The position numbers and the translations under genes are program-made. The notes under the pieces were generated by a model, which saw only the letters and a program-made list of their open reading frames with translations, was not told the origin of the DNA and ran no database searches. A stretch of DNA of 45,053 nt from Escherichia phage vB_ecoS_OzMSK. Every line of letters begins with the position of its first letter. Within the stretch, counting starts at the first letter, position 1. Positions 2,973 to 18,204 of the stretch are shown in pieces. The stretch lies in sequence record PQ659294.1; one strand, written 5' to 3'.

Positions 2973-3143
2973 ATGTTAACGATAATGATGACTAACCTTG
3001 AGTTAAATGAATTCAGCATTCTAGCTTTTATTATGCCAATACTGCTAATTCTTCCATTCGCTGCGTACGTCGTAATGAAAGATAATGCAGAGTGGAAGCG
3101 GATTGATAAGAAAATCAAAGAAGCAACGCACAGGAATAAGTAA
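2973..3143 (+). CDS. small membrane protein (56 aa, one hydrophobic helix)
   Basis: ORF below the track cutoff; sits at the conserved distance after the cassette leader; hydrophobic segment FSILAFIMPILLILPFAAYVV. Confidence 0.35.
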   Translation: MLTIMMTNLELNEFSILAFIMPILLILPFAAYVVMKDNAEWKRIDKKIKEATHRNK

Positions 3144-3144
3144 A

Positions 3145-3384
3145 ATGTTCGGACTAAATGAAGCTATGTTTAATGCAGTAAAGCGCCAGGCTAAAAAGCT
3201 CAACGATAAGTATGAGTCATTAAGCAAGCTTGACCGCAAGAATGATAAGTTAGTTGCGGGTATAATCACTGAGATTTGGCAACCAGTTTCTACAGTTATT
3301 AGCAGGGATCGATTTGTGTGGGTAGCCGGGTATCTCAAAGGTCGAGTTGGTCATGACGAGAATGGGAATAGCCTTTATGAGTGA
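3145..3384 (+). CDS. hypothetical protein (79 aa; ATG at 3145 within track ORF 3085..3384)
   Basis: TAAAATG stop-start junction with the upstream small ORF; basic N-terminal region. Confidence 0.4.
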   Translation: MFGLNEAMFNAVKRQAKKLNDKYESLSKLDRKNDKLVAGIITEIWQPVSTVISRDRFVWVAGYLKGRVGHDENGNSLYE

Positions 3385-3707
3385 GTTAACAATCTGGTTT
3401 ATCGCGGGACTGATTGCTTGGGGTTACTTTTTAATCGTTTAGATGAGATTGTTAAAAAGAGCTTGCATCACTGACCGGAATTATCTAACATTAACAACGT
3501 AGACAAACGAGGCCACCAAGTGGCAACGGCGCACGGAGCGAACTACACGGTAAGCCCGCTGTTCATTAAGTAGCATATGCGGCACATTGGACCAAGAGGA
3601 TAAGGCGTAAACCTCAACCCTTATGGGACTTGGAAGACCTAGCGCAAATAGGCAGATTAACCGGCTGTATCAGGCAGCCCCGGAGCCGTAACCGGGACTC
3701 ATTCAAA

Positions 3708-3785
3708 GCTCCGCTAGCTCAATTGGATAGCAGCAACGACCTTCTAAGTCGTAGGTTACTGGTTCGAGGCCAGTGCGGAGCGCCA
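3708..3785 (+). tRNA. tRNA-Arg, anticodon UCU, with encoded CCA
   Basis: Hand-folded cloverleaf: acceptor GCTCCGC/GCGGAGC (7 bp), U8, A14, GG in D-loop, anticodon stem ACGAC/GTCGT with loop CTTCTAA, 5-nt variable loop, T-stem ACTGG/CCAGT with loop TTCGAGG, discriminator G, CCA. Confidence 0.7.
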
Positions 3786-3812
3786 AATTTAACCAATAAT
3801 CCTGGGGGATTC

Positions 3813-3998
3813 ATGAAAATTGTAACATTCATCGTGAAAGATTCAGAAACAGGTTCCGTTCAGAAGTTTAACGCAAAGATGGACTTCACGGAAACCCGAG
3901 TGGTCAAAGGATCACTTAATGGAGTTTCTGTATCCGCGCAGCTTCCGCATGGTTTTGATTACTTATTCGGAAAACAATCAGCAAATGACGATGAGTAG
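3813..3998 (+). CDS. hypothetical protein (61 aa)
   Basis: ATG at 3813 with upstream GGGGGA; this is the 3' part of track ORF 3630..3998, whose 5' part runs through the tRNA. Confidence 0.4.
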   Translation: MKIVTFIVKDSETGSVQKFNAKMDFTETRVVKGSLNGVSVSAQLPHGFDYLFGKQSANDDE

Positions 3999-4182
3999 CT
4001 TGTGGGATGTGAAGTTGTCCATTCGCTTAATGGGCCGCTCGTGCAAGAATTGCACTCAAGATTACATCGCGTCAGTTGCCGCAATCAGCGCTGAGGATGC
4101 GGTAGCGAAAGTAAAGAGTATGTCAGGAGCTGCCCCTGATACTCACAAATTCCTGGTAGCTTACGTTCGTGAGCGAAAGTAA
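3985..4182 (+). CDS. hypothetical protein (~65 aa)
   Basis: ORF followed by a strong intrinsic terminator; start 3985 or 3991 uncertain. Confidence 0.35.
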   Translation: MTMSSLWDVKLSIRLMGRSCKNCTQDYIASVAAISAEDAVAKVKSMSGAAPDTHKFLVAYVRERK

Positions 4183-4226
4183 AAAGCGTTATACCCTCGT
4201 TAAGTTTCGTTTCTCTCGTTGTTTTT

Positions 4227-4250
4227 AGCCCTCGCTTGAGGGCTTTTTTT
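4227..4250 (+). terminator. rho-independent terminator (AGCCCTCGCTTGAGGGCT + T7)
   Basis: GC hairpin followed by a T-run. Confidence 0.7.
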
Positions 4251-4270
4251 CGTCTGTAATATGGTATAAT
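4251..4270 (+). promoter_or_regulatory. sigma70-like promoter with extended -10 (TGGTATAAT) ahead of the packaging/head operon
   Basis: TGGTATAAT at 4262..4270 directly after the terminator; AAGGAGG RBS and ATG 4294 follow. Confidence 0.5.
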
Positions 4271-4293
4271 CTGACCTCAACAAAGGAGGATTT

Positions 4294-4800
4294 ATGAGCA
4301 AAGCAGCATTAAAGATTGGTGAGGGAAACTTCAAGGCGCTCTACAACAAGAAGTATGGCGATATTGCTATGGTCGCAATCAACCGTAAGTACACGCCCGA
4401 GGAGGTATTTGACTTTGCAGTGAGATACTTTTCATGGGCTGAGAATGAGGCAATCAAGGCCATTGAGACGGCTGCATTCCAGGGTGTGGTTAGCGAGAGC
4501 CTGGTTCACAAGCCTCGAGTGTTCACCTTAACTGGCCTGGCGCTATTTATGGGTGTCAATATCAATAGATTCGCTCGCTGGCGTACTGAGGCTGGTTACT
4601 CTGACGTGATGGAATTCATTGATAACGTAATTTATGAGCAGAAGTATCAGCTTGGCGTTGCAGGCATCATCAACTCCACAATCGTTGGTAAAGAGTTAGG
4701 GATTGATAAGCCGCAGGAGATTACCATTAGCAACAACTCCACAGCTAACGACGTTGATAGCATGAAGGAAGCGCTGGAGTCTGTGATTAGTAAGTTATAA
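4294..4800 (+). CDS. terminase small subunit (putative)
   Basis: 168-aa ORF immediately upstream of the large terminase; strong RBS AAGGAGG. Confidence 0.55.
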   Translation: MSKAALKIGEGNFKALYNKKYGDIAMVAINRKYTPEEVFDFAVRYFSWAENEAIKAIETAAFQGVVSESLVHKPRVFTLTGLALFMGVNINRFARWRTEAGYSDVMEFIDNVIYEQKYQLGVAGIINSTIVGKELGIDKPQEITISNNSTANDVDSMKEALESVISKL

Positions 4801-4818
4801 CAATAAGAGGGTATAACA

Positions 4819-6384
4819 ATGTCTTTAGTGTGGGAAGAAATGACCATTCAGGAGAAGATGGCGGTTAAGGCTATATCAGAACACAGCTTCGAGGGTTTCC
4901 TTCGGTGCTGGTTTTCAATAACCCAGGGAGAACGATACATCCCTAACTGGCATCACAAGTACTTGTGCAGAATCATTGACGAGATTATCGCAGGAGAGCG
5001 CAAGGATACCATCATTAACATAGCGCCGGGCAGCGGAAAGACGGAAATCGCTTCAATACACTTCCCGGCATACTCGATGGTTAAGCTGAAGAAGGTGAGG
5101 AATCTTAACATCTCATTTGCCGACTCCCTTGTAAAGCGCAACTCGAAACGCGTACGTGACCTTATCAAGTCTCAAGAATTTCAATCACTCTGGCCTTGCA
5201 AGTTTGGCACATGCAAGGATGATGAGCTTCAGGTTCTTGATGAGAGCGGAAAGGTTAGGTTTGAGTCAATATCAAAGGCGGCTGGAGGCCAGATTACTGG
5301 TGCTCGCGGTGGCTACATAACTGAAAATTACAGTGGTGCGGTGTTGTTAGATGATTTCGATAAGCCCGCAGATATGCTTTCTCCGGTTTATCGAGCTAAT
5401 AACCACGTAATGCTCAAGAACACAATTCGATCACGTCGCGCTAGCTCTGTAAAAGGAAAAGCGACACCAATCATTTCGATACAGCAGCGTCTGCACGTCA
5501 ATGACTCAACCTGGTTCATGATGGAAGGTGGGATGGGCATCGATTTTGACTTGATTAAGATACCAGCGCTAGTTACTGAGGATTACATCGACTCGCTCCC
5601 TGACTGGATTAAAGAGCAGTTTGCGGAAGACGTTTTAAGCAGTGAGTACATTGAGAGAGATGGCGTAAAGTACTATAGCTACTTCCCAAAAAAGGAGTCA
5701 GTAAACGACCTGGTTGCGATGTGGGATAGTGACCCGTACACTTTTCTCAGCCAGTATCAACAAGAACCAGTAGCACTTGGTGGCAATCTGATTAACGTAG
5801 ACTGGTTCCAGCGTCTTAGTGATACATTCAGGCATCCAGCCAAGTACGATTATAGATTTATAACTTGCGATACTGCGATGACCACAAAGAGTTATAGTGA
5901 CTTCTCTGTACTTCAGTTGTGGGGATATAAGGATGCTAAGATTTACCTGATAGACCAGCGCAGGGGTAAATGGGAGGCTCCAGAATTAGAGGCTGAATTA
6001 CTTGACTTCGAGAAGAAATCAAGGGCAACCAGTCAGTCAGATGGCATCCTACGAAAAATCATTATCGAGAAGAAAGCCTCTGGTATCGGCTTGATTCAAT
6101 CTGCAGGCAGGGTAATGCGAACTCCGATAGAGCCATACGTACCGGATAGCGACAAGCTGACTCGCGTGATGAGCGCGTTACCACAGATCAAGGCTGGTAA
6201 CGTCGTCCTTCCAGAGTCTGCGCCATGGCTAAATGGATTGCTTACGGAGGTTGCGGCTTTTACGGCAGATGACTCGCATAAGCACGACGACCAAATTGAC
6301 TGTCTAACAATGGCAGTAAACCTTGTTCTCAATATCGCGGATGATCCTAAGGCACGACTAATGCGCATAGCGGGAATTAAATAG
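4819..6384 (+). CDS. terminase large subunit
   Basis: 521 aa; Walker A-like NIAPGSGKT near the N-terminus; C-terminal nuclease-like acidic residues; position before portal. Confidence 0.85.
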   Translation: MSLVWEEMTIQEKMAVKAISEHSFEGFLRCWFSITQGERYIPNWHHKYLCRIIDEIIAGERKDTIINIAPGSGKTEIASIHFPAYSMVKLKKVRNLNISFADSLVKRNSKRVRDLIKSQEFQSLWPCKFGTCKDDELQVLDESGKVRFESISKAAGGQITGARGGYITENYSGAVLLDDFDKPADMLSPVYRANNHVMLKNTIRSRRASSVKGKATPIISIQQRLHVNDSTWFMMEGGMGIDFDLIKIPALVTEDYIDSLPDWIKEQFAEDVLSSEYIERDGVKYYSYFPKKESVNDLVAMWDSDPYTFLSQYQQEPVALGGNLINVDWFQRLSDTFRHPAKYDYRFITCDTAMTTKSYSDFSVLQLWGYKDAKIYLIDQRRGKWEAPELEAELLDFEKKSRATSQSDGILRKIIIEKKASGIGLIQSAGRVMRTPIEPYVPDSDKLTRVMSALPQIKAGNVVLPESAPWLNGLLTEVAAFTADDSHKHDDQIDCLTMAVNLVLNIADDPKARLMRIAGIK

Positions 6385-6432
6385 CCGTGATAAACTAAGC
6401 CCCTATATGGGGATTTTCTATTGGAGAAAAAC

Positions 6433-7701
6433 ATGGTTAAGACAGACAGCTACGCCAATATCTTTCTAGGCGGCAGTGATGGTAGTGAGATTTACGGGAG
6501 TTTGCAGAGCCAATCCCCTACAATTCTGGCTTCGCTTTATGCGGACAATGCGCTGGTGCGTCGAATCATCGACACAATCCCGGAAACAGCACTAGCGGCA
6601 GGATTCCACATTGATGGAATTGATGATGAGCCTGCATTCTGGTCGCGCTGGGACTATCTAGAACTAACAAAGCACATCAATGAAGCCTGGTCGTGGGCTA
6701 GATTGTTCGGTGGGGCAGCAATTGTTGCTATCGTTAAGGACAATAGAGCTCTAACAAGCCCGGTCAGAGAAGGGGCGGAACTTGAAACCGTTCGCGTTTA
6801 CGACCGTACTCAAGTAAAAGTACAAACTCGCGAAGAGAATCCCCGCAACGCACGTTTTGGCAAGCCACTAACCTATCGCGTCACCACTAATGAGAGCGAT
6901 ATGTTCTATGATGTGCACTACAGCCGAATTCACATCATTGACGGAGAGCGAATCCCTAACGTAATGCGTCGGCAGAATGATGGCTGGGGCCGCAGCGTTC
7001 TTTCCAGTGACATTCTTGACTCAATCAAGGATTACACCAACTGCGAAAGACTCGCCACCCAACTACTGAGACGAAAGCAGCAAGCAGTGTGGAAAGCCAA
7101 AGGTCTGGCTGAGTTGTGTGATGATAGCGAGGGATTTGGTGCCGCAAGGTTGCGCCTAGCACAGGTTGATAACAATAGCGGCGTTGGTCAGGCGATTGGC
7201 ATTGACGCGGAATCTGAAGAGTATAGCATCCTAAACTCTGATATTGGCGGGATTGATGCGTTCCTGGATAAGAAGTTTGACAGAATCGTTGCACTGAGCG
7301 GCATTCATGAGATTATCCTGAAGAATAAGAACGTTGGCGGCGTATCATCAAGTCAGAACACCGCATTGGAGACATTCCATAAACTAGTCGATCGCAAGCG
7401 TAACGCTGAACTACTGCCGATTCTCGGGTTCCTGATTCCGTTCATTTCAGACGAGCAAGAATGGTCAGTGGAGTTTAATCCCCTAGCGCAGGAATCAAGT
7501 AAGGATAAGGCCGAGATTCTTGAGAAGAACGTAAACAGCATTGCGACACTAATTGCAGCTGGCGCTATGGACATTGACGAAGCTAGGGATACATTGCGCA
7601 CAATCGCTCCAGAGGTTAAGATTAGTGACGGTTCAGTAGAAACAGAGGTGACAATTAGTGAAGCCAGTAATGACCCGCTGGAAGTACCCACAGACAATTG
7701 A
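6433..7701 (+). CDS. portal protein
   Basis: ~420 aa ORF directly after terminase; ATG 6433 with GGAG RBS (track start 6421 is TTG). Confidence 0.8.
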   Translation: MVKTDSYANIFLGGSDGSEIYGSLQSQSPTILASLYADNALVRRIIDTIPETALAAGFHIDGIDDEPAFWSRWDYLELTKHINEAWSWARLFGGAAIVAIVKDNRALTSPVREGAELETVRVYDRTQVKVQTREENPRNARFGKPLTYRVTTNESDMFYDVHYSRIHIIDGERIPNVMRRQNDGWGRSVLSSDILDSIKDYTNCERLATQLLRRKQQAVWKAKGLAELCDDSEGFGAARLRLAQVDNNSGVGQAIGIDAESEEYSILNSDIGGIDAFLDKKFDRIVALSGIHEIILKNKNVGGVSSSQNTALETFHKLVDRKRNAELLPILGFLIPFISDEQEWSVEFNPLAQESSKDKAEILEKNVNSIATLIAAGAMDIDEARDTLRTIAPEVKISDGSVETEVTISEASNDPLEVPTDN

Positions 7702-8386
7702 GAGCCAGGTAAACCGCAATCTTAGCATTGCGGTAACTGAGCTAATTTCAGCAATGAGGGAATCAGCAACAAGACTTAAAATTGATACTGCAGAGGAGCT
7801 GGAGGAAGAGGATGGATATCTTGACGGGATAATTGCGGCGCTGGTGGCTTCATTTATATCAACAATCCCAACCATAGGTGCAGCTATATACAGATACAAT
7901 AGCTCGCAATTTCTTGTGCTTGCAATCAAGACTGGCGGGAGGTCAAACCCTAGCGTTCTAGACCTTGAAGTTAATGGCATCAATGGCGATGAGCCGTGGT
8001 ATAATGATGACCTTAATCAGTGGGTTTACACCACAAACAAGTCAGTGATTAAATTGCTGAATAACATTAAAGATGACTTTTTGCAGACGGCGTCAACAAT
8101 CCAGAATGGGGACTACGTTAAGTTATCCGATAGGTACAAAACATACAGGAAGCGAACGGCAAACATTGCATCTGGAATTGTCTCAAGTCTGAACTCAACA
8201 CTTATGAGACGTAGGCTTGAGGATGCTGGTGTTAGCCGATACGTCTGGCATGGAATGCTAGATGAAAGAGAGCGCCAATCTCATATAGCGAGAGAAGGTC
8301 TTAGCTTTAAACTTGGTGGTGATGATATATTTCCAGGTCAAGAATACGGTTGTCGTTGCTGGTCAGTTCCTGATTGGGAATCATAA
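7658..8386 (+). CDS. head morphogenesis / minor head protein (SPP1 gp7 / Mu F-like, putative)
   Basis: 242-aa ORF overlapping the portal 3' end; GTG start with GAGGTG RBS. Confidence 0.55.
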   Translation: MKPVMTRWKYPQTIESQVNRNLSIAVTELISAMRESATRLKIDTAEELEEEDGYLDGIIAALVASFISTIPTIGAAIYRYNSSQFLVLAIKTGGRSNPSVLDLEVNGINGDEPWYNDDLNQWVYTTNKSVIKLLNNIKDDFLQTASTIQNGDYVKLSDRYKTYRKRTANIASGIVSSLNSTLMRRRLEDAGVSRYVWHGMLDERERQSHIAREGLSFKLGGDDIFPGQEYGCRCWSVPDWES

Positions 8387-8433
8387 TGTGAGGATAAACG
8401 ATGAATTTGATGGCTTTTAGTGAGGAGAATTAA

Positions 8434-9519
8434 ATGAGTAAAATCCGCTATGACAGCGCAAAGTTTAAGGCAACAATCGACGAGAATGGATTCTTAGTCG
8501 ATACACCAGTAGTCGCACGTCTAGGTGTGCAAGTCTACTACATGGAGGACGGTCGCACTGTTCGAGAGTTTCGCCCAGCAGAGGAGGTTTTCAAGGATGA
8601 ATCACTCTCCAGCTACCAGGGTAAGCCAATGACTCTGGATCATGTTTTCGTTAACTCAGAGAACGCTAAAGAGGTAGTGGTAGGTTCCGTTACTGGCAAA
8701 GCTGAGCCATTGGGTAGCTCAGTGGTTGCTCCGATTGTTGTTTACGATAACACAGCCATTCAGGAAGCTATGGCAGGTAACGCCAAGGAGTTATCCGTTG
8801 GTTACTCTGCAATTCTTGACGAAACCCCTGGCTGGGGTGACCCTATTACTGGTGAGTACGTACTTAAATCTGATGGTGATCAATTCGATGCGCCAGATGG
8901 TTGGCAGGAGTTCGACGCAATTCAGCGTGACATTAAAGTGAACCATCTCGCAATGGTGTATCGAGGTAGGGCAGGTATTGCCAAATTGAATATGGACGGT
9001 GAGCAGGAAAACCCGTATACTACTGACGTTGATATCAATAAAGAGGATAAACAGGAAATGATTAAGATTAAACTCGACGGCGCGCAGGAATTTGAGGTTG
9101 CCCCGGAAATCGCTTCTCACATCGAAGCACTGAACGCAAAGGCTGACACCGCAATCGCTGAGCGCGATGCACTGAAAGCTAAAGTTGATGCAATGCCTGC
9201 TGAAATTGAGGCCGCAGTTGCTAAAGCGAAAGCTGACGCTGATGCCCTGGCGGCTCTGGTAGCTGTTGCCGCTGAAGCTGGTGTCAAGGCTGACGGCCTG
9301 GATGCTAAAGGCATTAAAGTGGCTTACGTTAAAGAAATCTCCGGCCTTGATGTTGGCGAGAAGTCTGACGCGTACATCGACGCAGCGTTCGACATTGCCA
9401 AAGAATCTGATAAAATGGCTGAAGTACGTAGAGCGACTACCGCTTCCGACAAATCTGACAGCGCCGTAGAGCCTAAGAAATTAGACCCGCGTGCTCGTTT
9501 AGCTAAAATTAAGAAATAA
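8434..9519 (+). CDS. capsid scaffolding protein (putative)
   Basis: 361 aa; C-terminal half is Ala/Lys/Asp/Glu-rich predicted coiled coil; lies between head morphogenesis and capsid genes. Confidence 0.55.
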   Translation: MSKIRYDSAKFKATIDENGFLVDTPVVARLGVQVYYMEDGRTVREFRPAEEVFKDESLSSYQGKPMTLDHVFVNSENAKEVVVGSVTGKAEPLGSSVVAPIVVYDNTAIQEAMAGNAKELSVGYSAILDETPGWGDPITGEYVLKSDGDQFDAPDGWQEFDAIQRDIKVNHLAMVYRGRAGIAKLNMDGEQENPYTTDVDINKEDKQEMIKIKLDGAQEFEVAPEIASHIEALNAKADTAIAERDALKAKVDAMPAEIEAAVAKAKADADALAALVAVAAEAGVKADGLDAKGIKVAYVKEISGLDVGEKSDAYIDAAFDIAKESDKMAEVRRATTASDKSDSAVEPKKLDPRARLAKIKK

Positions 9520-9530
9520 GGAGTTATAAC

Positions 9531-10040
9531 ATGGCAATTCGTTCCGTAGCACTGGCTGGTATGGTTTCTGATACCTCTCTGTACAACATCGATGGCGCTT
9601 GTGTAGTTGGCGGCGCAGCAGCCATTCCGGTTGGCACTTTTGTTGGCGTTACATCCGCTCAGCCTGTAGATGGTCACAAGGTTGTTGGACTCCCAGTCGT
9701 AACTGGCTCGGCAGTTAAACCTTATGGTGTTGTTGTTAAATCTCATTACGAGACTCCAGATGGCACAGCTCGCGTAAATGAAGCGGTTAACGTAATGACA
9801 CATGGTCGAGTCTGGGTTCGTACAAATCTAGCGGCTGCGCCAGCTTTTGGTGGCAAGGTTTTTGTAAACGCGAGTGGCGTTGTTGTCGCAGAAGCGGCAG
9901 GTGCTACTTGGGAGACTGGTTTTACATTTGCTGGTGGTTACATTAAAAACACGAGCACAGACCCGCAAGACCTAAGCGTTGATGGCGCACTAGTTGAAGT
10001 TCAGCTTATTCAATCCGCAGGCTCAACTGTTGCAGCTTAA
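9531..10040 (+). CDS. putative head decoration / structural protein (169 aa)
   Basis: Gly/Val/Ala-rich ORF between scaffold and major capsid, followed by a strong terminator. Confidence 0.4.
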   Translation: MAIRSVALAGMVSDTSLYNIDGACVVGGAAAIPVGTFVGVTSAQPVDGHKVVGLPVVTGSAVKPYGVVVKSHYETPDGTARVNEAVNVMTHGRVWVRTNLAAAPAFGGKVFVNASGVVVAEAAGATWETGFTFAGGYIKNTSTDPQDLSVDGALVEVQLIQSAGSTVAA

Positions 10041-10055
10041 TAATTAAGATATATA

Positions 10056-10079
10056 AAGCCTCCTTCGGGAGGTTTTTTT
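10056..10079 (+). terminator. rho-independent terminator (AAAGCCTCCTTCGGGAGG + T-run)
   Basis: GC hairpin with TTCG loop and T7. Confidence 0.7.
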
Positions 10080-10085
10080 ATGTCA

Positions 10086-10113
10086 TTGCGTGGGCTAAAA
10101 ACTCGTGTATAAT
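10086..10113 (+). promoter_or_regulatory. sigma70-like promoter (TTGCGT, 16 nt, TATAAT) for the major capsid gene
   Basis: Near-consensus -35/-10 hexamers with 16-nt spacer. Confidence 0.55.
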
Positions 10114-10151
10114 GAATACGTAAACACATAACTGAAAAGGAACAATAAAGA

Positions 10152-11096
10152 ATGGCCATTAAATTTGATGCAGAACAAGCAAAAATCACCGCTCACCTCG
10201 AGCAAATGGGCGTAGAAAAAGCTGATGCCGCTGGTATCTGGACCGTTAGCCAGCTCACCGCTGCTCTGAACCGTGCTTACGAAAAAGAATACGCAGAAAA
10301 CTCAGTTGTTAATATCTTCCCTGTAACAAATGAAATTCCTGGTCACGCGAAGTATTTCGAATACCCAGAGTTTGATGGTGTTGGCATTGCTCAGATTATC
10401 GCTGACTACTCTGACGATCTGCCGCTGGTTGATGCGTTTATGACCGAGAAACAAGGCAAAGTGTTCCGTTTCGGTAACGCATTCCTGATTTCTACCGATG
10501 AAATTAAAGCGGGTGCTGCAACTGGTCAGTCTCTGTCAACTCGCAAGCAGGCATTGGCTTTCGAAGCGCACGATAACTTGCTGGATAAACTGGTGTGGTC
10601 TGGTTCCACTCCTCACGGTATCGTAAGTGTATTCGATCAACCGAACATCAACAACGTTGTTGCCACTCCAAACTGGAGCGTCGCGCAGAACGCGATTAAT
10701 GACGTCACTGCGATGATTGATGCGGTTGAGAGCTCAACCCAGGGCCTACATCATGTAACTGACATTCTGCTTCCAGCTTCCGCTCGTCGAGTGATGCAGG
10801 GACTGGTTCCGCAGACAAACCTGAGTTACGGCGAATTGTTCACTCGTAACAACCCGGGTCTGACCATTCGCTTTATGCAGTTCCTGGACAACTACGATGG
10901 CGCAGGTGGCAAGGCTGCTCTGGCGTTTGAAAAGAATCCACTCAATATGTCTATTGAGATTCCAGAAGCTACTAACGTACTTCCTGGGCAGCCCAAGGAC
11001 TTGCACTTTAAGTACCCTGTAACATCAAAGGCGACGGGTTTGATCGTTTATCGTCCACTGACGATGGCTGTAATGAAAGGTATCACCTTCGCGTAA
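10152..11096 (+). CDS. major capsid protein
   Basis: 314 aa; own promoter and flanking strong terminators (high-expression context); position in head module. Confidence 0.75.
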   Translation: MAIKFDAEQAKITAHLEQMGVEKADAAGIWTVSQLTAALNRAYEKEYAENSVVNIFPVTNEIPGHAKYFEYPEFDGVGIAQIIADYSDDLPLVDAFMTEKQGKVFRFGNAFLISTDEIKAGAATGQSLSTRKQALAFEAHDNLLDKLVWSGSTPHGIVSVFDQPNINNVVATPNWSVAQNAINDVTAMIDAVESSTQGLHHVTDILLPASARRVMQGLVPQTNLSYGELFTRNNPGLTIRFMQFLDNYDGAGGKAALAFEKNPLNMSIEIPEATNVLPGQPKDLHFKYPVTSKATGLIVYRPLTMAVMKGITFA

Positions 11097-11100
11097 TAAA

Positions 11101-11125
11101 CCGCCCTCTTCGGAGGGCTTTTTTT
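11101..11125 (+). terminator. rho-independent terminator (CCGCCCTCTTCGGAGGGC + T7)
   Basis: GC hairpin plus T-run; followed by ACGTCTGTA..GGTTATAATC promoter-like sequence. Confidence 0.7.
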
Positions 11126-11189
11126 ACGTCTGTACCAAATGGAATTGTTGGGTTATAATCACTCAATCAGATAAACAAAGGAGACAAAA

Positions 11190-11435
11190 ATGATTCGTTT
11201 AGAACACACTGGCGCTTGCCTTATCGTTTACAAGGGTGAGAAATATTTGCCTGGTGACACTTTCGAGGTTGATGTAATTTGCGACGGACTCAAGCGTTTA
11301 ATCGCAGAGGGTAAACTCACTATTGAAGGTGACGCTAAAGCAACCAAGCAAATCGCGCAAGAAATTGTTAGCAAGAAAAAGCGCAAAGAACCGAAAACCA
11401 TCTCCGAAGCTGAGACTGGTAACGAGTACAAATAA
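11190..11435 (+). CDS. hypothetical protein (81 aa)
   Basis: ORF with AAGGAG RBS, flanked by terminator-like hairpins. Confidence 0.5.
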   Translation: MIRLEHTGACLIVYKGEKYLPGDTFEVDVICDGLKRLIAEGKLTIEGDAKATKQIAQEIVSKKKRKEPKTISEAETGNEYK

Positions 11436-11476
11436 CAAACAGGGCGCTTCGGCGTCCTTTATTGTATGGAGCTAAT

Positions 11477-11878
11477 ATGAATGATGCAATTTTGGCGTTT
11501 ATGCGCTCTCTTGTTCCTGCGCTTAAAGCGGTGGATGACGAAGCAATTAATGTATGGATTGATTTGGCACGTCTATATGTATGCGAAAGCAAGTTTGGCG
11601 CAGACAAAGATAAGGCCGTAGGACTTTACGCGCTACACCTGATGCTTTCTGATGGCGCATTTAAGGGTGAGAGTGAAAGTCTGGAAACATACAGTCGAAG
11701 AATGGCAAGTTACGCACTGAGCGGTGAATTCTCTATCACCTATGATAACCAATCAGCAATCCAAGGTGATTTATCATCTTCCTCCTGGGGCCGCATGTAC
11801 AAAGCACTGCTCCGCAAGAAAGGTGGCGGCTTTGGATTTATTACTTCCGCTGGTGGCGGCGGGTGCGGTTGCCGATGA
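11477..11878 (+). CDS. head-tail connector / neck protein (putative)
   Basis: 133-aa ORF (ATG 11477 with GGAG RBS) in neck region; Gly-rich C-terminus. Confidence 0.4.
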   Translation: MNDAILAFMRSLVPALKAVDDEAINVWIDLARLYVCESKFGADKDKAVGLYALHLMLSDGAFKGESESLETYSRRMASYALSGEFSITYDNQSAIQGDLSSSSWGRMYKALLRKKGGGFGFITSAGGGGCGCR

Positions 11879-12246
11879 ACTACAGCGAAATCGAATCAAT
11901 CACTCGCTCTGGCATTGACTTCTTTAGTGATGCCAATGGCGTTTATGAAATGAGTACTGGTGATGGATATGTTGAAATCGTTAACGGCGTTGAAGTTGAA
12001 GTTCCTTCGCAAACACTTCAGCTAAAAGGCTTGGTGCGAGAAATCAAGACGCGAGATATCGATGGCGAGTTTATCCAGTTTGGCGATAAGCGCGGAATCT
12101 TCACGGCACAGGTAGAAATCAAGCAGGGTTATCAGATTAAAGTTGATGGCGAGACTTTTGTTGTTGTTGATCCTCGCCCAGTTAAACCAACTGGTACAGT
12201 TGTTGGTTATAGACCAATTCTTCGTAGGGTGACTACTTATGGCTAG
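11875..12246 (+). CDS. head-tail joining protein (putative)
   Basis: ATGA stop-start overlap at 11875; position in neck module. Confidence 0.4.
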   Translation: MNYSEIESITRSGIDFFSDANGVYEMSTGDGYVEIVNGVEVEVPSQTLQLKGLVREIKTRDIDGEFIQFGDKRGIFTAQVEIKQGYQIKVDGETFVVVDPRPVKPTGTVVGYRPILRRVTTYG

Positions 12247-12688
12247 TTTTATACCGAAGGCTAATGGCGGGGTTATTGAATTTAGCCGTTCCATTTCTGA
12301 ATGGATAGATAAGGTTGAATCTGGAGTTGATGAGGTTGTTGCAGGAACCATTATCAAGACAGCCAAGGGTCTGGTAGATCAGTCACCGGTTGACACTGGT
12401 AGATTTAAAGCCAACTGGCAAATAACAGCAAACTCCCCGGCTCAGCAGTCAGTAATTGACTATGATAAACTTGGAACAGAGACCAAAAGAGCACTCGCAA
12501 GACAGGCAAGGGCGGTAGCCAGAGCAAAGGGAACAAAGGTCATTTACATAACAAACAGGCTTGATTACTCAATTCACCTTGAGTATGGCGGCTCGGGTCA
12601 AGCACCAAACGGCATTATTAGGATTGTTCAGATGCGGCTTGGTCGATACTTCCAGGAAGCAGTAGAGGAGGCTAAACGTGCACTATGA
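12239..12688 (+). CDS. tail completion protein (HK97 gp10-like, putative)
   Basis: 149 aa; motif DTGRFKANW resembles the HK97 gp10 family signature; overlapping start. Confidence 0.45.
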   Translation: MASFIPKANGGVIEFSRSISEWIDKVESGVDEVVAGTIIKTAKGLVDQSPVDTGRFKANWQITANSPAQQSVIDYDKLGTETKRALARQARAVARAKGTKVIYITNRLDYSIHLEYGGSGQAPNGIIRIVQMRLGRYFQEAVEEAKRAL

Positions 12689-13079
12689 ATTGTCTATAGC
12701 TGCCAGGAAATATGTTAATGATTTGCTGGTGAGTAGCTTCCCAGTCAGATATCCAGTATCTTGGGAAAACGTTGCTTTCACTCCTCCAGCAGATGGCTCT
12801 ATCTGGCTAAAGTATGACTACATCGAGGTTGACACCGTAACATACGGGCTGAGCAGGAAGTGCAAATACTATGTAGGGATGGTGCAGGTTTCTGTCTTCT
12901 TCAGTCCAGGCACTGGCATTGATAAGCCTAGACAAATCGCTAATCGATTGGCAGAATCTATCGTTGATGGTACAATGCTTGACAGCGGGACCATTTATGA
13001 GTCTGGAGTTGTTAACCCGGTTATCAAATCCAAGTCTGGGTGGTTTATCCCGGTTCATTTTTATGTTCGTCTAGACTAA
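12678..13079 (+). CDS. tail terminator-like protein (putative)
   Basis: 133 aa; GTG start with GGAGGAGG RBS; position immediately before major tail gene. Confidence 0.4.
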   Translation: MHYELSIAARKYVNDLLVSSFPVRYPVSWENVAFTPPADGSIWLKYDYIEVDTVTYGLSRKCKYYVGMVQVSVFFSPGTGIDKPRQIANRLAESIVDGTMLDSGTIYESGVVNPVIKSKSGWFIPVHFYVRLD

Positions 13080-13094
13080 CAAAAGGAAAAATAC

Positions 13095-13751
13095 ATGGCT
13101 CATCTCAGCAATGGCACGCAGGTCTTCGTAGAAGGCTCTCGCGGTGACACAATTGATGTAACTGCAATTTCTAACGCAGCTACCCCTGTTTTAACTGTAT
13201 CTGACGCCTCTGGCTTGGTTGTTGGTGATTACCTGCTTTTCACCTCATCGGCCTCTACACTTCTGGCTGACAAGCAAGTACGAATTACTGCAATTTCTGG
13301 CACTTCGGTAACAGTTGAAGGTATTGATACCTCCAACACCACTAAGTTCCCTGCTGGCTTAACTGGTGAAGTTGTTAAGATTACTTCATGGTTCGAAGTC
13401 CCGTGTGTTCAGGACGTATCTACTGACGGCGGCGAACAGCAGTTTGTTAACTTCCAGTGCCTTTCTGATGACCGCGAACAGCAGATTCCGACTTATAAAT
13501 CTGCGGTAACAAACACCTTCACCTTTGCTCACGAGTACACCAACCAGGTCTATCCGGTTCTGCGTAACTACGATGAGTCTGGCCAGGTTGTCGCGATTCG
13601 TCTGTTCGTACCTCGCGCTCAGGAAATGCGTTTGCAGTCCGGCACTATCACTTTCAACGACACCCCTACCATTGGTGTTAACGAGATCGAAACGGTATCC
13701 ATCGCAGTATCAATTCGTGGTCGCCTGTCCTCTGTAGCAGCTGAAGTTTAA
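13095..13751 (+). CDS. major tail protein
   Basis: 218-aa Thr/Ser/Val-rich ORF followed by a strong terminator; precedes chaperone pair and tape measure. Confidence 0.65.
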   Translation: MAHLSNGTQVFVEGSRGDTIDVTAISNAATPVLTVSDASGLVVGDYLLFTSSASTLLADKQVRITAISGTSVTVEGIDTSNTTKFPAGLTGEVVKITSWFEVPCVQDVSTDGGEQQFVNFQCLSDDREQQIPTYKSAVTNTFTFAHEYTNQVYPVLRNYDESGQVVAIRLFVPRAQEMRLQSGTITFNDTPTIGVNEIETVSIAVSIRGRLSSVAAEV

Positions 13752-13757
13752 AACACA

Positions 13758-13779
13758 AACCCTCTTCGGAGGGTTTTTT
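13758..13779 (+). terminator. rho-independent terminator (AAACCCTCTTCGGAGGGTTTTTT)
   Basis: GC hairpin with TTCG loop and T-run. Confidence 0.7.
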
Positions 13780-13784
13780 ATTGC

Positions 13785-13827
13785 ATAGCACTTTTGCTAA
13801 AGCACTTATTCAGCTTTACTGTATAGT
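13785..13827 (+). promoter_or_regulatory. degenerate class-A cassette (ATAGCACTTTTGCTAAAG, then TATAGT) driving the moron
   Basis: Variant of the inverted-repeat motif plus -10-like TATAGT and a leader resembling other cassettes. Confidence 0.4.
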
Positions 13828-13860
13828 TATCTCATCTAAACGAAATGAGAGATTAAAGAA

Positions 13861-14109
13861 ATGAATAACGTTAAAAACATCATCAAACTTGCTGCAGTTC
13901 TTGTTGCTTTTTATGCAGTAGTTCAGATTGTTAACCCAACTGGCGAGGCTGATGCCAATAGCAAGGCAAACAAATATACCGTTGAGTTCGCTAAAGCTGA
14001 GCGAGCATGCCAGGAGCTTGTGGGTAGTAAAGTTGACCAAATCATGAAATATGGCAAAGAGGTCTGCAAGGACTCAGCTGCTAAGATTGCAAAAGAAAAC
14101 ACTAAGTAA
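13861..14109 (+). CDS. small secreted or membrane-anchored protein (82 aa); moron candidate inside the tail module
   Basis: N-terminal hydrophobic segment IIKLAAVLVAFYAVVQIV; own promoter-like cassette and upstream terminator; AT-rich flank. Confidence 0.5.
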   Translation: MNNVKNIIKLAAVLVAFYAVVQIVNPTGEADANSKANKYTVEFAKAERACQELVGSKVDQIMKYGKEVCKDSAAKIAKENTK

Positions 14110-14148
14110 TAGAATACATACTCACAAACAATAAGAGGATTAACTAAG

Positions 14149-14463
14149 ATGGCTAAGTTCAAACTTTCACTGGCAGCACTCCCTGACTTCAAGCTTCCGG
14201 TAAAATTCAAGCTGGCTAACGACCAGGATGTAGAGGTTATCTTTACAGTCAAGCATAAGAAAACATCTGAGCTTCAGGAGCTTTTGCAGAAAGAAGACTT
14301 GAGTACTAAAGAATTGATTATGGCAATCGCCTCTGATTGGGATTTGGAAGAAGAATACAACGAGGATAACGTTAATGAGTTCTCCGACCTGTTCCCAGCG
14401 TCAACAGTTGCACTGACTACCGCTTACATGCAGGCACTGGCAGGCCAGCGGGTAAAAAACTAA
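14149..14463 (+). CDS. tail assembly chaperone (lambda G-like)
   Basis: 104-aa acidic ORF immediately upstream of tape measure; ends with slippery heptamer A_AAA_AAC then TAA. Confidence 0.65.
   Translation: MAKFKLSLAALPDFKLPVKFKLANDQDVEVIFTVKHKKTSELQELLQKEDLSTKELIMAIASDWDLEEEYNEDNVNEFSDLFPASTVALTTAYMQALAGQRVKN
14454..14460 (+). promoter_or_regulatory. candidate -1 programmed frameshift site (A_AAA_AAC)
   Basis: X_XXY_YYZ heptamer in the zero frame two codons before the G stop; the -1 frame is open into ORF 14472..14783. Confidence 0.55.
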
Positions 14464-14471
14464 AGAGGGCG

Positions 14472-14783
14472 GTGTATCTACAGTACCAGTCAGATCCAAC
14501 AGATGCCGAACTGGAAGCTATTGGGATGCGCCGCTCTGATTACGAAGACGAAGAGCCTGAAGTTTTGCACTTCGACGATAACATGATGAAGGCGTGGGAC
14601 ATTTATTGTTCAATGGCGACACAGTGGAGAGTCGGAGCCAACGGACCAACGGGCCTAGATTACAACGTGCTAAATTTCCTCTTTAGAGTGTATAATGTTT
14701 CTGAAGAGGAATTGGTACTCAGCGATTTACGCATCCTTGAAGCTAAGGCTCTCGAGATGATGGATAACCTGATAAAAAAATAA
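14472..14783 (+). CDS. tail assembly chaperone T-like extension (probably made as a G-T fusion by -1 frameshift)
   Basis: ORF in the -1 frame relative to G, no convincing independent RBS, followed by terminator and tape measure. Confidence 0.5.
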   Translation: MYLQYQSDPTDAELEAIGMRRSDYEDEEPEVLHFDDNMMKAWDIYCSMATQWRVGANGPTGLDYNVLNFLFRVYNVSEEELVLSDLRILEAKALEMMDNLIKK

Positions 14784-14806
14784 CCCGCTTCGGCGGGTTT
14801 TCTATT
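14782..14806 (+). terminator. terminator-like hairpin (AACCCGCTTCGGCGGGTT + TTCTATT)
   Basis: GC hairpin with TTCG loop; weak T-run. Confidence 0.45.
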
Positions 14807-14818
14807 ATGGAGGCTTAG

Positions 14819-17797: not shown

Positions 17798-17827
17798 TTA
17801 ATGGGGCTTCGGCCCCTAAGGATTTTT

Positions 17828-18178
17828 ATGGCTATTGATACTTTTAACTGGTGCACGCAGATTCAGGGCGGGTCCGCATCTTTCAGTAACACAAACAACG
17901 TCCGCATTGTTAGCTTCGGTAATGGTTATGAGGCTAGAGGCACTGGCGGTTATCGCAGCAATAAGCGCAGCTACCAGATGACCTACACTAACAAGGACTG
18001 GAGAGATGTGATGGATTTCTGCCTCAACCACATCATTACCCCGTTCTTCTGGACTACGCCGCAGGGCGACACATCCATGTTCGTTATTCAGCAGGATAGT
18101 ATTAGCGTTACACCAGTCAGTAAGGAAGTTCAGACTGTAAGCATGCAATTCGTAGAAGTATTTAGTTCAATGCGTTAA
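17828..18178 (+). CDS. minor tail protein (lambda M-like)
   Basis: 116 aa from ATG 17828 (track start 17801 lies in a hairpin); first gene after tape measure. Confidence 0.65.
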   Translation: MAIDTFNWCTQIQGGSASFSNTNNVRIVSFGNGYEARGTGGYRSNKRSYQMTYTNKDWRDVMDFCLNHIITPFFWTTPQGDTSMFVIQQDSISVTPVSKEVQTVSMQFVEVFSSMR

Positions 18179-18181
18179 ACT

Positions 18182-18204
18182 AAGCCCCTATGCGGGGCTT
18201 TTTT
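18182..18204 (+). terminator. rho-independent terminator (AAGCCCCTATGCGGGGCTTTTTT)
   Basis: GC hairpin plus T6. Confidence 0.6.

Follow-up and report, generated by a model that had tools for sequence, protein, structure and literature searches.

Positions 3497-3707 (+ strand) of Escherichia phage vB_ecoS_OzMSK (PQ659294.1), whose full stretch of 45,053 nucleotides was analyzed here (the window), are predicted to encode a structured non-coding leader RNA, and comparison with related phages shows it as a member of a previously undescribed family upstream of the small terminase gene (terS) in several subfamilies of the Drexlerviridae, coliphage T1 included. The window is 100% identical to MW057918.1 (45,053 bp), the Rtp-like siphovirus Msk (Drexlerviridae/Braunvirinae), and the name Msk is used below. 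The 5' end of the leader was placed from the -10 hexamer of a predicted promoter, and its 3' end is the RNase P site of the tRNA-Arg(UCU) gene that follows. A sequence-only reading of the region had reported this tRNA and proposed that the stretch before it, which appeared to hold GC-rich hairpins and no plausible open reading frame (ORF), could be a leader, a promoter region or a decayed second tRNA. Its suggestion of a structured leader is borne out by a conserved chain of hairpins over ~3497-3707 that is supported by covariation.

The promoter and leader stretch was collected from 19 Braunvirinae sequences (alignment A1), and 25 distinct Braunvirinae sequences were aligned with MAFFT and given a structure written by hand (alignment A2). 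Covariance model R1 was built from A2 and searched on Drexlerviridae loci anchored at terS. This search resulted in matches in 52 of the 73 loci, at a constant position ~500-650 nt upstream of terS and with E-values, rough because the calibration was quick, from 3e-17 to marginal. The match in Msk covers 3489-3707 with 183.5 bits and is the only significant copy in the window. Thirty-four distinct sequences from at least five lineages were then aligned to the covariance model (alignment A4). The parts of the RNA in Msk, as predicted from these comparisons, are as follows.

3497..3707, + strand: structured non-coding leader RNA, ~210 nt (covariance model R1; covariation)
3499..3511, + strand: single-stranded 5' motif GUAGAC-AAACGAG (family consensus CGUARAC-N-ARGAG)
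3512..3524, + strand: hairpin H1, GCCAC-CAA-GUGGC
3529..3541, + strand: hairpin H2, GCGC-ACGGA-GCG(A)
3556..3582, + strand: nested hairpin H3/H4, CCGC..GCGG around UGUU-CAUUAAGU-AGCA, Braunvirinae-specific
3596..3615, + strand: optional module H5a, GAGG-AUAAGGCGUAAA-CCUC, in some relatives only
3618..3627, + strand: optional module H5b, CCC-UUAU-GGG, in some relatives only
3638..3652, + strand: hairpin H6, CCUA-GCGCAAA-UAGG
3664..3678, + strand: hairpin H7, GCUG-UAUCAGG-CAGC, flush against H8
3679..3696, + strand: hairpin H8, CCCGG-AGCCGUAA-CCGGG, the family signature
3697..3707, + strand: 3' tail ACUCAUUCAAA; in relatives without a tRNA the tail, ..AUUCARG, continues into the Shine-Dalgarno sequence

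Standard pairs fill 98.1% of the 789 cells of the A2 structure, compared with 24-41% when the partners are slid by 1-3 columns. Nine pairs of A2 show compensatory changes, four of them belonging to H1, two each to H7 and H8 and one to H3, and the covariation score of 0.204, against 0.085 for shuffles, was reached by 0 of 500 shuffles. When all columns were scanned against all for covariation by mutual information (MI), blind to the structure, the top seven pairs were pairs of H1, H7 and H8. The sequence-only reading had named a covariance search of the upstream region as a check. In A4, 97.7% of the cells are paired, compared with 29-39% for slid controls, compensatory changes occur at 23 of the 30 pairs, and all five measures lie above 500 of 500 shuffles. 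The G+C content is 0.545 at 3500-3699, compared with ~0.38-0.42 in the upstream 1.5 kb and 0.42-0.50 downstream. By minimum free energy (MFE), the whole stretch has a z-score of -0.14 and the 3' double hairpin one of -1.2; because the fold of a single sequence is thus no better than that of shuffles, the predicted hairpins are taken as real solely from the comparison with relatives.

H8 is the most conserved element, 100% paired and with covariation at five of five pairs among the 34 sequences of A4. Its stems, read directly, are CCCGG/CCGGG, GCUGG/CCAGC, CCCGC/GCGGG, GCGGG/CCCGC, GUGGG/CCCAC, GCCGG/CCGGC and GCCGC/GCGGC, and its loop starts with A and ends in CCGUAA in most lineages, in GCGUAA in TR2 and ES, and in CGGUAA in phiKP26. 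This is the hairpin, at 3679-3696, that had been quoted from the sequence as CCCGG-AGCCGTAA-CCGGG. H1 shows changes on both sides at 4 of 5 pairs within Braunvirinae and at 5 of 5 family-wide, and it supplies the top three pairs of the unbiased MI scan. Compensatory changes affect two of the four pairs of H7 in A2 (GCUG/CAGC versus GUCG/CGAC) and all four in A4. H2 is invariant in Braunvirinae and covaries at 4 of 4 pairs family-wide (GCAUC-GCGGA-GAUGC in Rogunavirinae). In A2, 94.6% of H6 is paired and none of its pairs changes in a compensatory way; the equivalent helix of A4 covaries, and TR2 and ES lack H6. Within the nested hairpin, H3 pair 74-96 is either G-C or A-U in A2, and pairs 75-95 and 76-91 are most often U.G. 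The optional modules H5a and H5b yield no covariation information. At the 5' end, the GTAG of the single-stranded motif is invariant in A2, and the motif is also found in the RNAs of T1, of Rogunavirinae and of the Webervirus and ESCO41 types.

Among relatives the Braunvirinae stretch varies from ~165 to 370 nt in length. Modules are gained and lost between close relatives, including H5a, H5b, a 60-nt hairpin in Rtp and AugustePiccard, and a hairpin before the tRNA in the IME542 type. All forms have in common the promoter, the 5' CGUARAC-N-ARGAG motif and H1, to which most forms add H2, H7 and H8. The Webervirus form, of ~75 nt, consists of the 5' motif, H1 and one further hairpin beside the ribosome-binding site only. 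JulesPiccard (L157, ~1141-1209) and A110b (L164, ~828-896) carry a tandem second H7-H8 copy between the first copy and the tRNA, and the loops of this second copy differ (UAAAGG and AAUCAUAA).

The stretch appears to be non-coding and to be read as + strand RNA. The ORFs within 3443-3707 are minus-strand ones of at most 34 aa, apart from a single ORF that starts at TTG and continues across the tRNA. Relatives keep no reading frame open in the leader, and 70 of the 111 indel runs have lengths not divisible by three, so the earlier remark that no plausible ORF is present holds. The preference for U.G at two pairs fits transcription of the + strand. Three further pairings were considered and rejected: a kissing interaction between the H2 and H8 loops (ACGG:CCGU), which, judged by eye, is not kept in DTL, L217 and phiKP26; closing helices of 5' GUAG with CUAC or of 5' GAGG with 3' CCUC, which occur in MFE folds and are not conserved across lineages; and the leader sequence CGGAGCG as an alternative partner of the tRNA acceptor, for which no covariation was found (T145P1).

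BLAST with the Msk stretch returned 88 phage records, all Rtp-like. Other versions of the RNA returned 98 further records (TLS, LL5 and Stevie, and Salmonella, Citrobacter, Klebsiella and Cronobacter phages), 33 ESCO41-like records and 351 Klebsiella Webervirus records with the short form, which matches in the 5' part only; these four sets of records may overlap. The rogunavirine phiKP26 carries a diverged version missed by BLAST, with the same 5' start, an H2 stem that differs but retains the CGGA loop, and a double hairpin at the 3' side, the last part of which is CCCGC-AUUCGGUAA-GCGGG. The copy in T1 lies at 7614-7743 (37.8 bits, E = 3e-12), in an unannotated gap of 164 nt between gp58 and gp57. 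An exact 16-mer scan of IMG/VR found already sequenced isolates and L033 only, and the same scan of GTDB genomes gave ~120 matches that look like chance, in GC-rich genomes, four of them with at least one loose flanking signature.

The RNA is unannotated in the records inspected. A permissive search of 3000-4300 with the 4227 models of Rfam 15 (E up to 10) gave no match to the leader beyond a chance-level mir-544 hit (16 bits, E = 10), and ten variant loci searched at the gathering thresholds yielded tRNAs only. No homology or antisense match to the leader was found in E. coli genomes, where the tRNA alone matches. The core sequences of the leader were not found in the literature searched, no description of the RNA was found among those papers, and the re-annotation of TLS makes no mention of the region (PMC11447400).

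No tRNA follows the RNA in T1, in the L182-L187/L235 type and in the Webervirus type. Elsewhere it is followed by tRNA-Ser(GCU) (L203), Arg(CCU) alone, Trp plus Arg(CCU), or Arg(CCU) plus Val, and in each tRNA-carrying case the first tRNA begins at, or within ~2 nt of, the 3' end of the RNA match. Six genes (Arg(CCU)-Ser(UGA)-Ser(GCU)-Asn-Trp-Met), the most tRNAs observed at this junction, stand directly behind the RNA in a Drexlerviridae-like contig (L218, IMGVR_UViG_3300048920_000084, 320-967). Because the RNA occupies the same locus in many phages without a tRNA and in others with one to six different tRNAs, the comparison identifies the RNA as the conserved element and the tRNAs as probable passengers, and it shows one to six tRNA genes of various identities as apparent insertions at the junction between the RNA tail and the Shine-Dalgarno sequence. 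The simplest history would make the RNA the ancestral 5' leader of a small operon into which tRNA genes, and ORF1 in Msk, were inserted later. The idea of a leader therefore survives in part: the stretch is a structured leader, and it is not merely the leader of the tRNA, since the RNA stands at the same place in many Drexlerviridae without a tRNA, including T1.

In Msk the RNA forms part of what comparison shows as one small putative transcription unit at 3463-4251, comprising a promoter, the ~210-nt RNA, tRNA-Arg, two small ORFs and a terminator. Its remaining features, with the start of the next unit, are listed here.

3449..3462, + strand: A-rich, UP-element-like tract TTGTTAAAAAGAGC, directly 5' of the -35 hexamer, nearly invariant in the 19 Braunvirinae sequences of A1
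3463..3491, + strand: predicted sigma-70-type promoter, -35 TTGCAT at 3463-3468, 17-nt spacer, -10 TAACAT at 3486-3491
3708..3785, + strand: tRNA-Arg(UCU), CCA encoded (ARAGORN; Rfam tRNA model)
3813..3998, + strand: ORF1, 61 aa, phrog_16862, not universal in the family
3985..4182, + strand: ORF2, 65 aa, CxxC protein, phrog_2919 (T1 gp56-like)
4227..4251, + strand: predicted intrinsic terminator AGCCCUC-GCUU-GAGGGCU followed by U7, closing the unit
4262..4270, + strand: predicted extended -10 promoter TGGTATAAT of terS, start of the next unit

The promoter pattern TTGCAT-N17-TAAYAT is nearly invariant in the Braunvirinae alignment and was found in 25 of 28 relatives. Other phages have a different promoter-like sequence at the same position: TTGACA-N17-TACATT in ES, TTGACG-N17-TAGTAT in phiKP26, TTGACG-N17-TAACAT in L184 (flagged by the promoter scan, 9/12 with TG) and TTGACC-N17-TAGTAT in T1. 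This conservation, together with replacement at the same position, suggests that the Msk promoter is active and that transcription starts near 3497-3499, in keeping with the earlier suggestion of a promoter region; the A-rich tract at 3449-3462 would be an UP element. Within the promoter spacer lies a conserved CTGACCGG (3471-3478), corresponding to a CTGAYYGG motif in relatives, which adjoins the -35 hexamer in Braunvirinae and the -10 hexamer in T1 and in the L235 and Webervirus types and could be an operator. Just 5' of the promoter, a hydrophobic ORF of 21 codons, MSELTIWFIAGLIAWGYFLIV (3377-3442), comes to its stop; it has a counterpart in phiKP26, and the EC3a record annotates its counterpart as a putative membrane protein. 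TR1 and TR2 have a coding sequence (CDS) for a 'transcriptional repressor' whose last bases overlap the promoter (L017 699-935, which is TR2; L002/L006 465-701).

Downstream, a homolog of ORF2 stands behind the RNA in every locus with downstream ORFs that was inspected. ORF2 itself had close homologs only, with no match in Pfam, NCBIfam or PDB. In phages without a tRNA at the locus, the RNA tail ..AUUCARG runs into the Shine-Dalgarno sequence of gp57 (T1) or of a CxxC gp56/ORF2 homolog (phrog_2919; elsewhere), and after this first small gene come one or two small ORFs, an intrinsic terminator, TGGTATAAT and terS. This arrangement shows the RNA as the likely 5' untranslated region of a gp57/gp56-like small-protein operon in these phages. 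The position expected of a riboswitch or another cis-regulatory 5' untranslated element, directly before an ORF, is seen in T1 and in the L235 and Webervirus types; in Msk the tRNA and 27 nt lie between. No conserved alternative pairing between the leader RNA and the Shine-Dalgarno sequence was found. The terminator at the end of the unit also appears in L184 and in the annotation of T1. An identical TGGTATAAT lies between the terminator of the unit and terS in L184 (2434-2442), that is, in two distant subfamilies.

ARAGORN identified one tRNA only in the window, the tRNA-Arg with anticodon TCT at 3708..3785 on the + strand, and the Rfam tRNA model (RF00005) gave it 53 bits (E = 3e-10), with a gathering score of 29, so both accept the cloverleaf that had been read from the sequence. 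The anticodon loop is CUUCUAA, the D-loop UUGGAUAG supplies G18 G19 A20, and the Rfam alignment also places C35. A20 and C35 are identity elements for arginyl-tRNA synthetase, and the Msk tRNA is thus predicted to have the identity elements expected of an Arg(UCU) isoacceptor. AGA and AGG are rare codons in E. coli. Counting codons in a greedy set of 62 Msk ORFs, as the sequence-only reading had proposed, gave 11.7 AGA per 1000 codons, or 24.7% of Arg codons, and 6.9 AGG per 1000 codons. Because AGA accounts for so large a share of Msk Arg codons yet is rare in E. coli, the straightforward reading is that the tRNA would decode AGA for an AGA-rich phage; protection against tRNA-targeting defenses is a possible role. 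The host argU gene has the same anticodon and ~78% identity, whereas the phage tRNA differs from it in the acceptor stem and the T-arm, sits inside a phage operon and, in most Braunvirinae, has one additional base in the D-arm region. The anticodon of the tRNA-Arg of TR2, ES and Rogunavirinae is CCU, not UCU.

The tRNA itself is already known, as it has been published for MSK and is annotated in many relatives. The MSK genome paper lists 'one tRNA-arg (78 bp)' and 'no sRNA', and reports the tRNA-Arg gene as absent from Rtp and DTL (PMC8421802); ARAGORN detects it in both Rtp (L003, 997-1073) and DTL (L009, 915-992), where it is present and merely unannotated. Directly 3' of tRNA-Arg, PCEc3 (L159, PQ314493.1) carries a second tRNA-like gene at 995-1093 that has no counterpart in Msk. 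This gene scores 39.4 bits with the Rfam tRNA model (gathering score 29), has the anticodon loop CUUAUAC, giving UAU (Ile, rare codon AUA), and contains an insert of ~25 nt in the variable region; it is not called by ARAGORN, and the record annotates a tRNA-Ile of 102 nt. EC3a (L007) and BEK6 (L008) have ~100 additional nt at the same place. Other public annotations lie over the element as CDSs: a minus-strand 'hypothetical protein' extends across the tRNA in BEK6 (L008, 905-1018), and a CDS starts inside the tRNA in DTL (L009, 930-1190). Such CDSs, lying over the tRNA, the promoter or the leader RNA, are probably over-predicted.

In 15 representative RNAs the unpaired motif GUA(R)AC occurs 28 times where 3.9 occurrences would be expected, and their reverse complements have none. 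Its locations are the 5' end, the H8 loop, the H5a loop (which holds a second motif, GUAAAC), the stretch after H1 (Rogunavirinae and the L235 type) and the H1 loop (Webervirus). Its recurrence is only suggestive. As genome-wide operators, H8-like hairpins find no support in the Msk genome, with 4 loose matches against 2.6 expected. Since the loops are invariant while the stems drift, an unpaired motif is repeated and modules are duplicated, the pattern points to recognition by a protein, which would fit better than a small-molecule ligand or a purely thermodynamic role.

With moderate confidence, we propose that the RNA is a protein-binding leader that acts in cis or co-transcriptionally on its own unit. 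Transcription would begin near 3497-3499 at the conserved promoter; the leader would present GUA(R)AC in the invariant H8 loop, in other loops and in the single-stranded 5' end for protein binding, and it would act on elongation, on stability, or on expression of the small proteins and the tRNA. RNase P cleavage at 3707/3708 would, in Msk, free the leader as a separate RNA. The RNA reaches its greatest elaboration in Braunvirinae, although a tRNA separates it there from the ORFs, and since it is conserved in them, its role would not be solely translational control of the next gene; it would have to act during transcription, on the precursor, or in trans.

Several points weigh against this proposal. 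After excision of the tRNA, a cis effect on translation cannot occur in Msk, and the transcription start, the release by RNase P and the stability of the RNA are all predictions from sequence. The Msk promoter agrees with the consensus at 7 of 12 positions and was not flagged by the promoter scan. No binding protein was identified, and the partner protein ORF2 offers no clue, its AlphaFold model having a pLDDT (predicted local distance difference test) of 55, too low to be usable. H7 and H8 are missing from Webervirus-type RNAs and are thus not essential for every function. As to the structure, folding energies are barely better than those of shuffles, so that single-sequence folding is uninformative; A4 was fitted to the model and is biased towards the structure; and cell counts overstate the number of independent substitution events, the phages being related and recombining. 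The GUA(R)AC motif was defined after the data had been viewed, again among related lineages.

That the leader instead represents a new class of phage RNA working away from its own ORFs, either as an antitermination RNA or as a decoy released by RNase P, is a tentative possibility. As a stable sponge or decoy acting in trans, the RNA would accumulate after its release and, by means of its repeated GUA(R)AC loops, tie up a protein of the host or of the phage; candidates would be RNA-binding regulators, tRNA-directed enzymes and defense nucleases. Such a role would suit the conservation and greater elaboration of the RNA where the tRNA separates it from the ORFs, the duplication, gain and loss of modules, the excess of the motif and its sharing by the H8 and H5a loops, and other phage structured RNAs of unknown function adjoin tRNA islands (PMC12286853). 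Phages without a tRNA, however, offer no obvious means of freeing the RNA from the mRNA, the Webervirus form is limited to ~75 nt, there is no complementarity or homology to host sequences, and the motif is a post hoc one. Resemblance to a sponge of the CsrB/RsmZ type fails in particular, as the GGA of the H2 loop is not conserved (ACGGA in Braunvirinae; GCGGU, CGG or CAG elsewhere) and there was no Rfam CsrB/RsmY hit. We place the decoy on the unlikely side. Processive antitermination of the put/nut kind, in which the RNA, especially H7 and H8, would let the polymerase pass the terminator at 4227 and those of the late region, seems distinctly unlikely. The RNA is promoter-proximal, always heads the packaging and late region and would function independently of downstream inserts; + strand terminators are many in the late region of Msk and in the T1 annotation, CTGAYYGG is conserved in the promoter spacer, and TLS has few recognizable promoters (PMC11447400). 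Yet terS has its own strong extended -10 promoter right behind the terminator, and the terminator is itself strong and conserved, which suggests that transcription of the unit should stop at this point. H7 and H8 do not occur in Webervirus-type RNAs, a boxA-like GCUCAUUAA occurs in Braunvirinae only, and no similarity to a known antitermination RNA was shown. Either role, if true, would explain why tRNAs have repeatedly settled behind the RNA and would address late transcription or host control in T1-like phages, which the authors of the TLS study count among the open questions (PMC11447400).

Trivial or DNA-level explanations are improbable even when pooled. The stretch might be functionless, an ordinary precursor leader or spacer of the tRNA or the remains of one or more decayed tRNAs: it borders the tRNA on the 5' side, RNase P would cut it off, the CGGAGCG of the leader is similar to the 3' acceptor strand of this tRNA, and H4 is loosely D-arm-like. 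This reading, which includes the decayed second tRNA suggested from the sequence, is already contradicted by T1 and many other phages that have the RNA without a tRNA and by compensatory changes that keep the helices; moreover, no second match to the Rfam tRNA model was found at E up to 10, no cloverleaf topology is present, and CGGAGCG does not covary with the acceptor stem (T145P1), which makes it very improbable. A DNA-level element such as a pac site, a replication origin or cruciform hairpins would suit an inverted-repeat-rich stretch ~590 nt upstream of terS. We hold this to be just as improbable, since a U.G pair would be A.C on the other strand and irrelevant in duplex DNA, the motif is strand-specific and a promoter lies directly upstream of the RNA; the terminal repeat and pac end of T1 are at 1-2800, ~7.6 kb away, and the copy in TLS is at 7787-7940 of its record. 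Slimmest of all is the chance of a small coding gene or leader peptide within the stretch: at H1 of some phages, GAGG precedes a GUG or AUG and yields short ORFs (9-17 codons), with a start codon and frame that vary among H1 variants and are absent in TR2, and no frame is open in relatives.

Among known systems, the RNA resembles GOLLD and ROOL in being a phage-encoded structured RNA of unknown function beside tRNA genes, which in GOLLD and ROOL are sometimes embedded (PMC12286853). It differs from them in being 4-8 times smaller (75-370 nt versus ~600-800 nt or more), in its fixed place as a promoter-proximal operon leader upstream of terS and in its restriction to enterobacterial Drexlerviridae; with this length and no Rfam hit, it falls outside the RF01998/RF03087-type families of >500 nt. 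Species 1 and 2 of phage T4 (rnaC/rnaD) are small structured RNAs of unknown function that share a tRNA precursor and are freed by tRNA-processing enzymes. They lie inside or behind the tRNA cluster, whereas the leader RNA lies 5' of it and exists without a tRNA, and the likeness is one of description only. HK022 put and lambda nut are promoter-proximal antitermination RNAs, which the leader resembles in its promoter-proximal stem-loops heading a phage operon, with loops conserved, stems variable and indifference to downstream content. The adjacent H7 and H8 stem-loops recall HK022 put as an analogy of position, and antitermination is not known from T1-like phages. The lambda-type nut arrangement, a boxA like CGCUCUUUA plus a boxB pentaloop, was not found: the boxA-like GCUCAUUAA of Braunvirinae lies ~110 nt before H8 and is absent in T1 and in the L235 and ESCO41 types, and the H8 loop has 8-10 nt. 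To the thrS operator there is a resemblance only: H8 has 5 bp in its stem, and its loop, of 8-10 nt, not 7, closes with CGU-AA (Thr-like) and in phiKP26 with GGU-AA; the second H7-H8 copy reads CAU. Lambdoid Stx phages carry ileZ-argN-argO, for the rare codons AGA, AGG and AUA, in the late-operon leader downstream of pR'. Rare-codon tRNAs in an untranslated operon leader near the promoter are common to both cases, as is an Ile(UAU)-like tRNA behind tRNA-Arg in PCEc3, but the phages belong to a different family, there is no homology, and here a conserved structured RNA precedes the tRNAs.

The new RNA family occurs widely in a classical group of phages, carries no annotation, and can be tested directly in T1 and the BASEL phages. 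T1 is a classical coliphage, yet next to nothing is known of how T1-like phages, which are common laboratory contaminants and phage-therapy candidates, regulate their genes; the conserved RNA and its promoter, present in T1-, Rtp-, TLS- and Rogue1-like phages as well as in Klebsiella Webervirus phages, offer a handle on this. That tRNAs have repeatedly been gained at a single junction, downstream of an RNA already in place, is relevant to the question of how phages come to acquire tRNAs, and for what reason. A model of the RNA would also improve phage genome annotation, as it is unannotated in the inspected records, several of which have a spurious CDS lying over it.

Two of the records have doubtful host assignments: MG065688.1, 'Campylobacter phage A110b' (flagged UNVERIFIED), and PP134917.1, 'Pseudomonas phage PsgS01F', are Rtp-like coliphage genomes, and the latter has the same length of 44,679 bp and the same match statistics as the E. 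coli phage PCEc3. The late region of Msk at 4227-18200 contains strong + strand intrinsic terminators at 4227, 10055, 11103, 11441, 13757, 14782 and 18182. On both strands together it holds 33 terminator-like sites, against 16.6 expected, and 22 promoter-like sites, against 30.3 expected, and the annotation of T1 shows the same terminator pattern in its late region.

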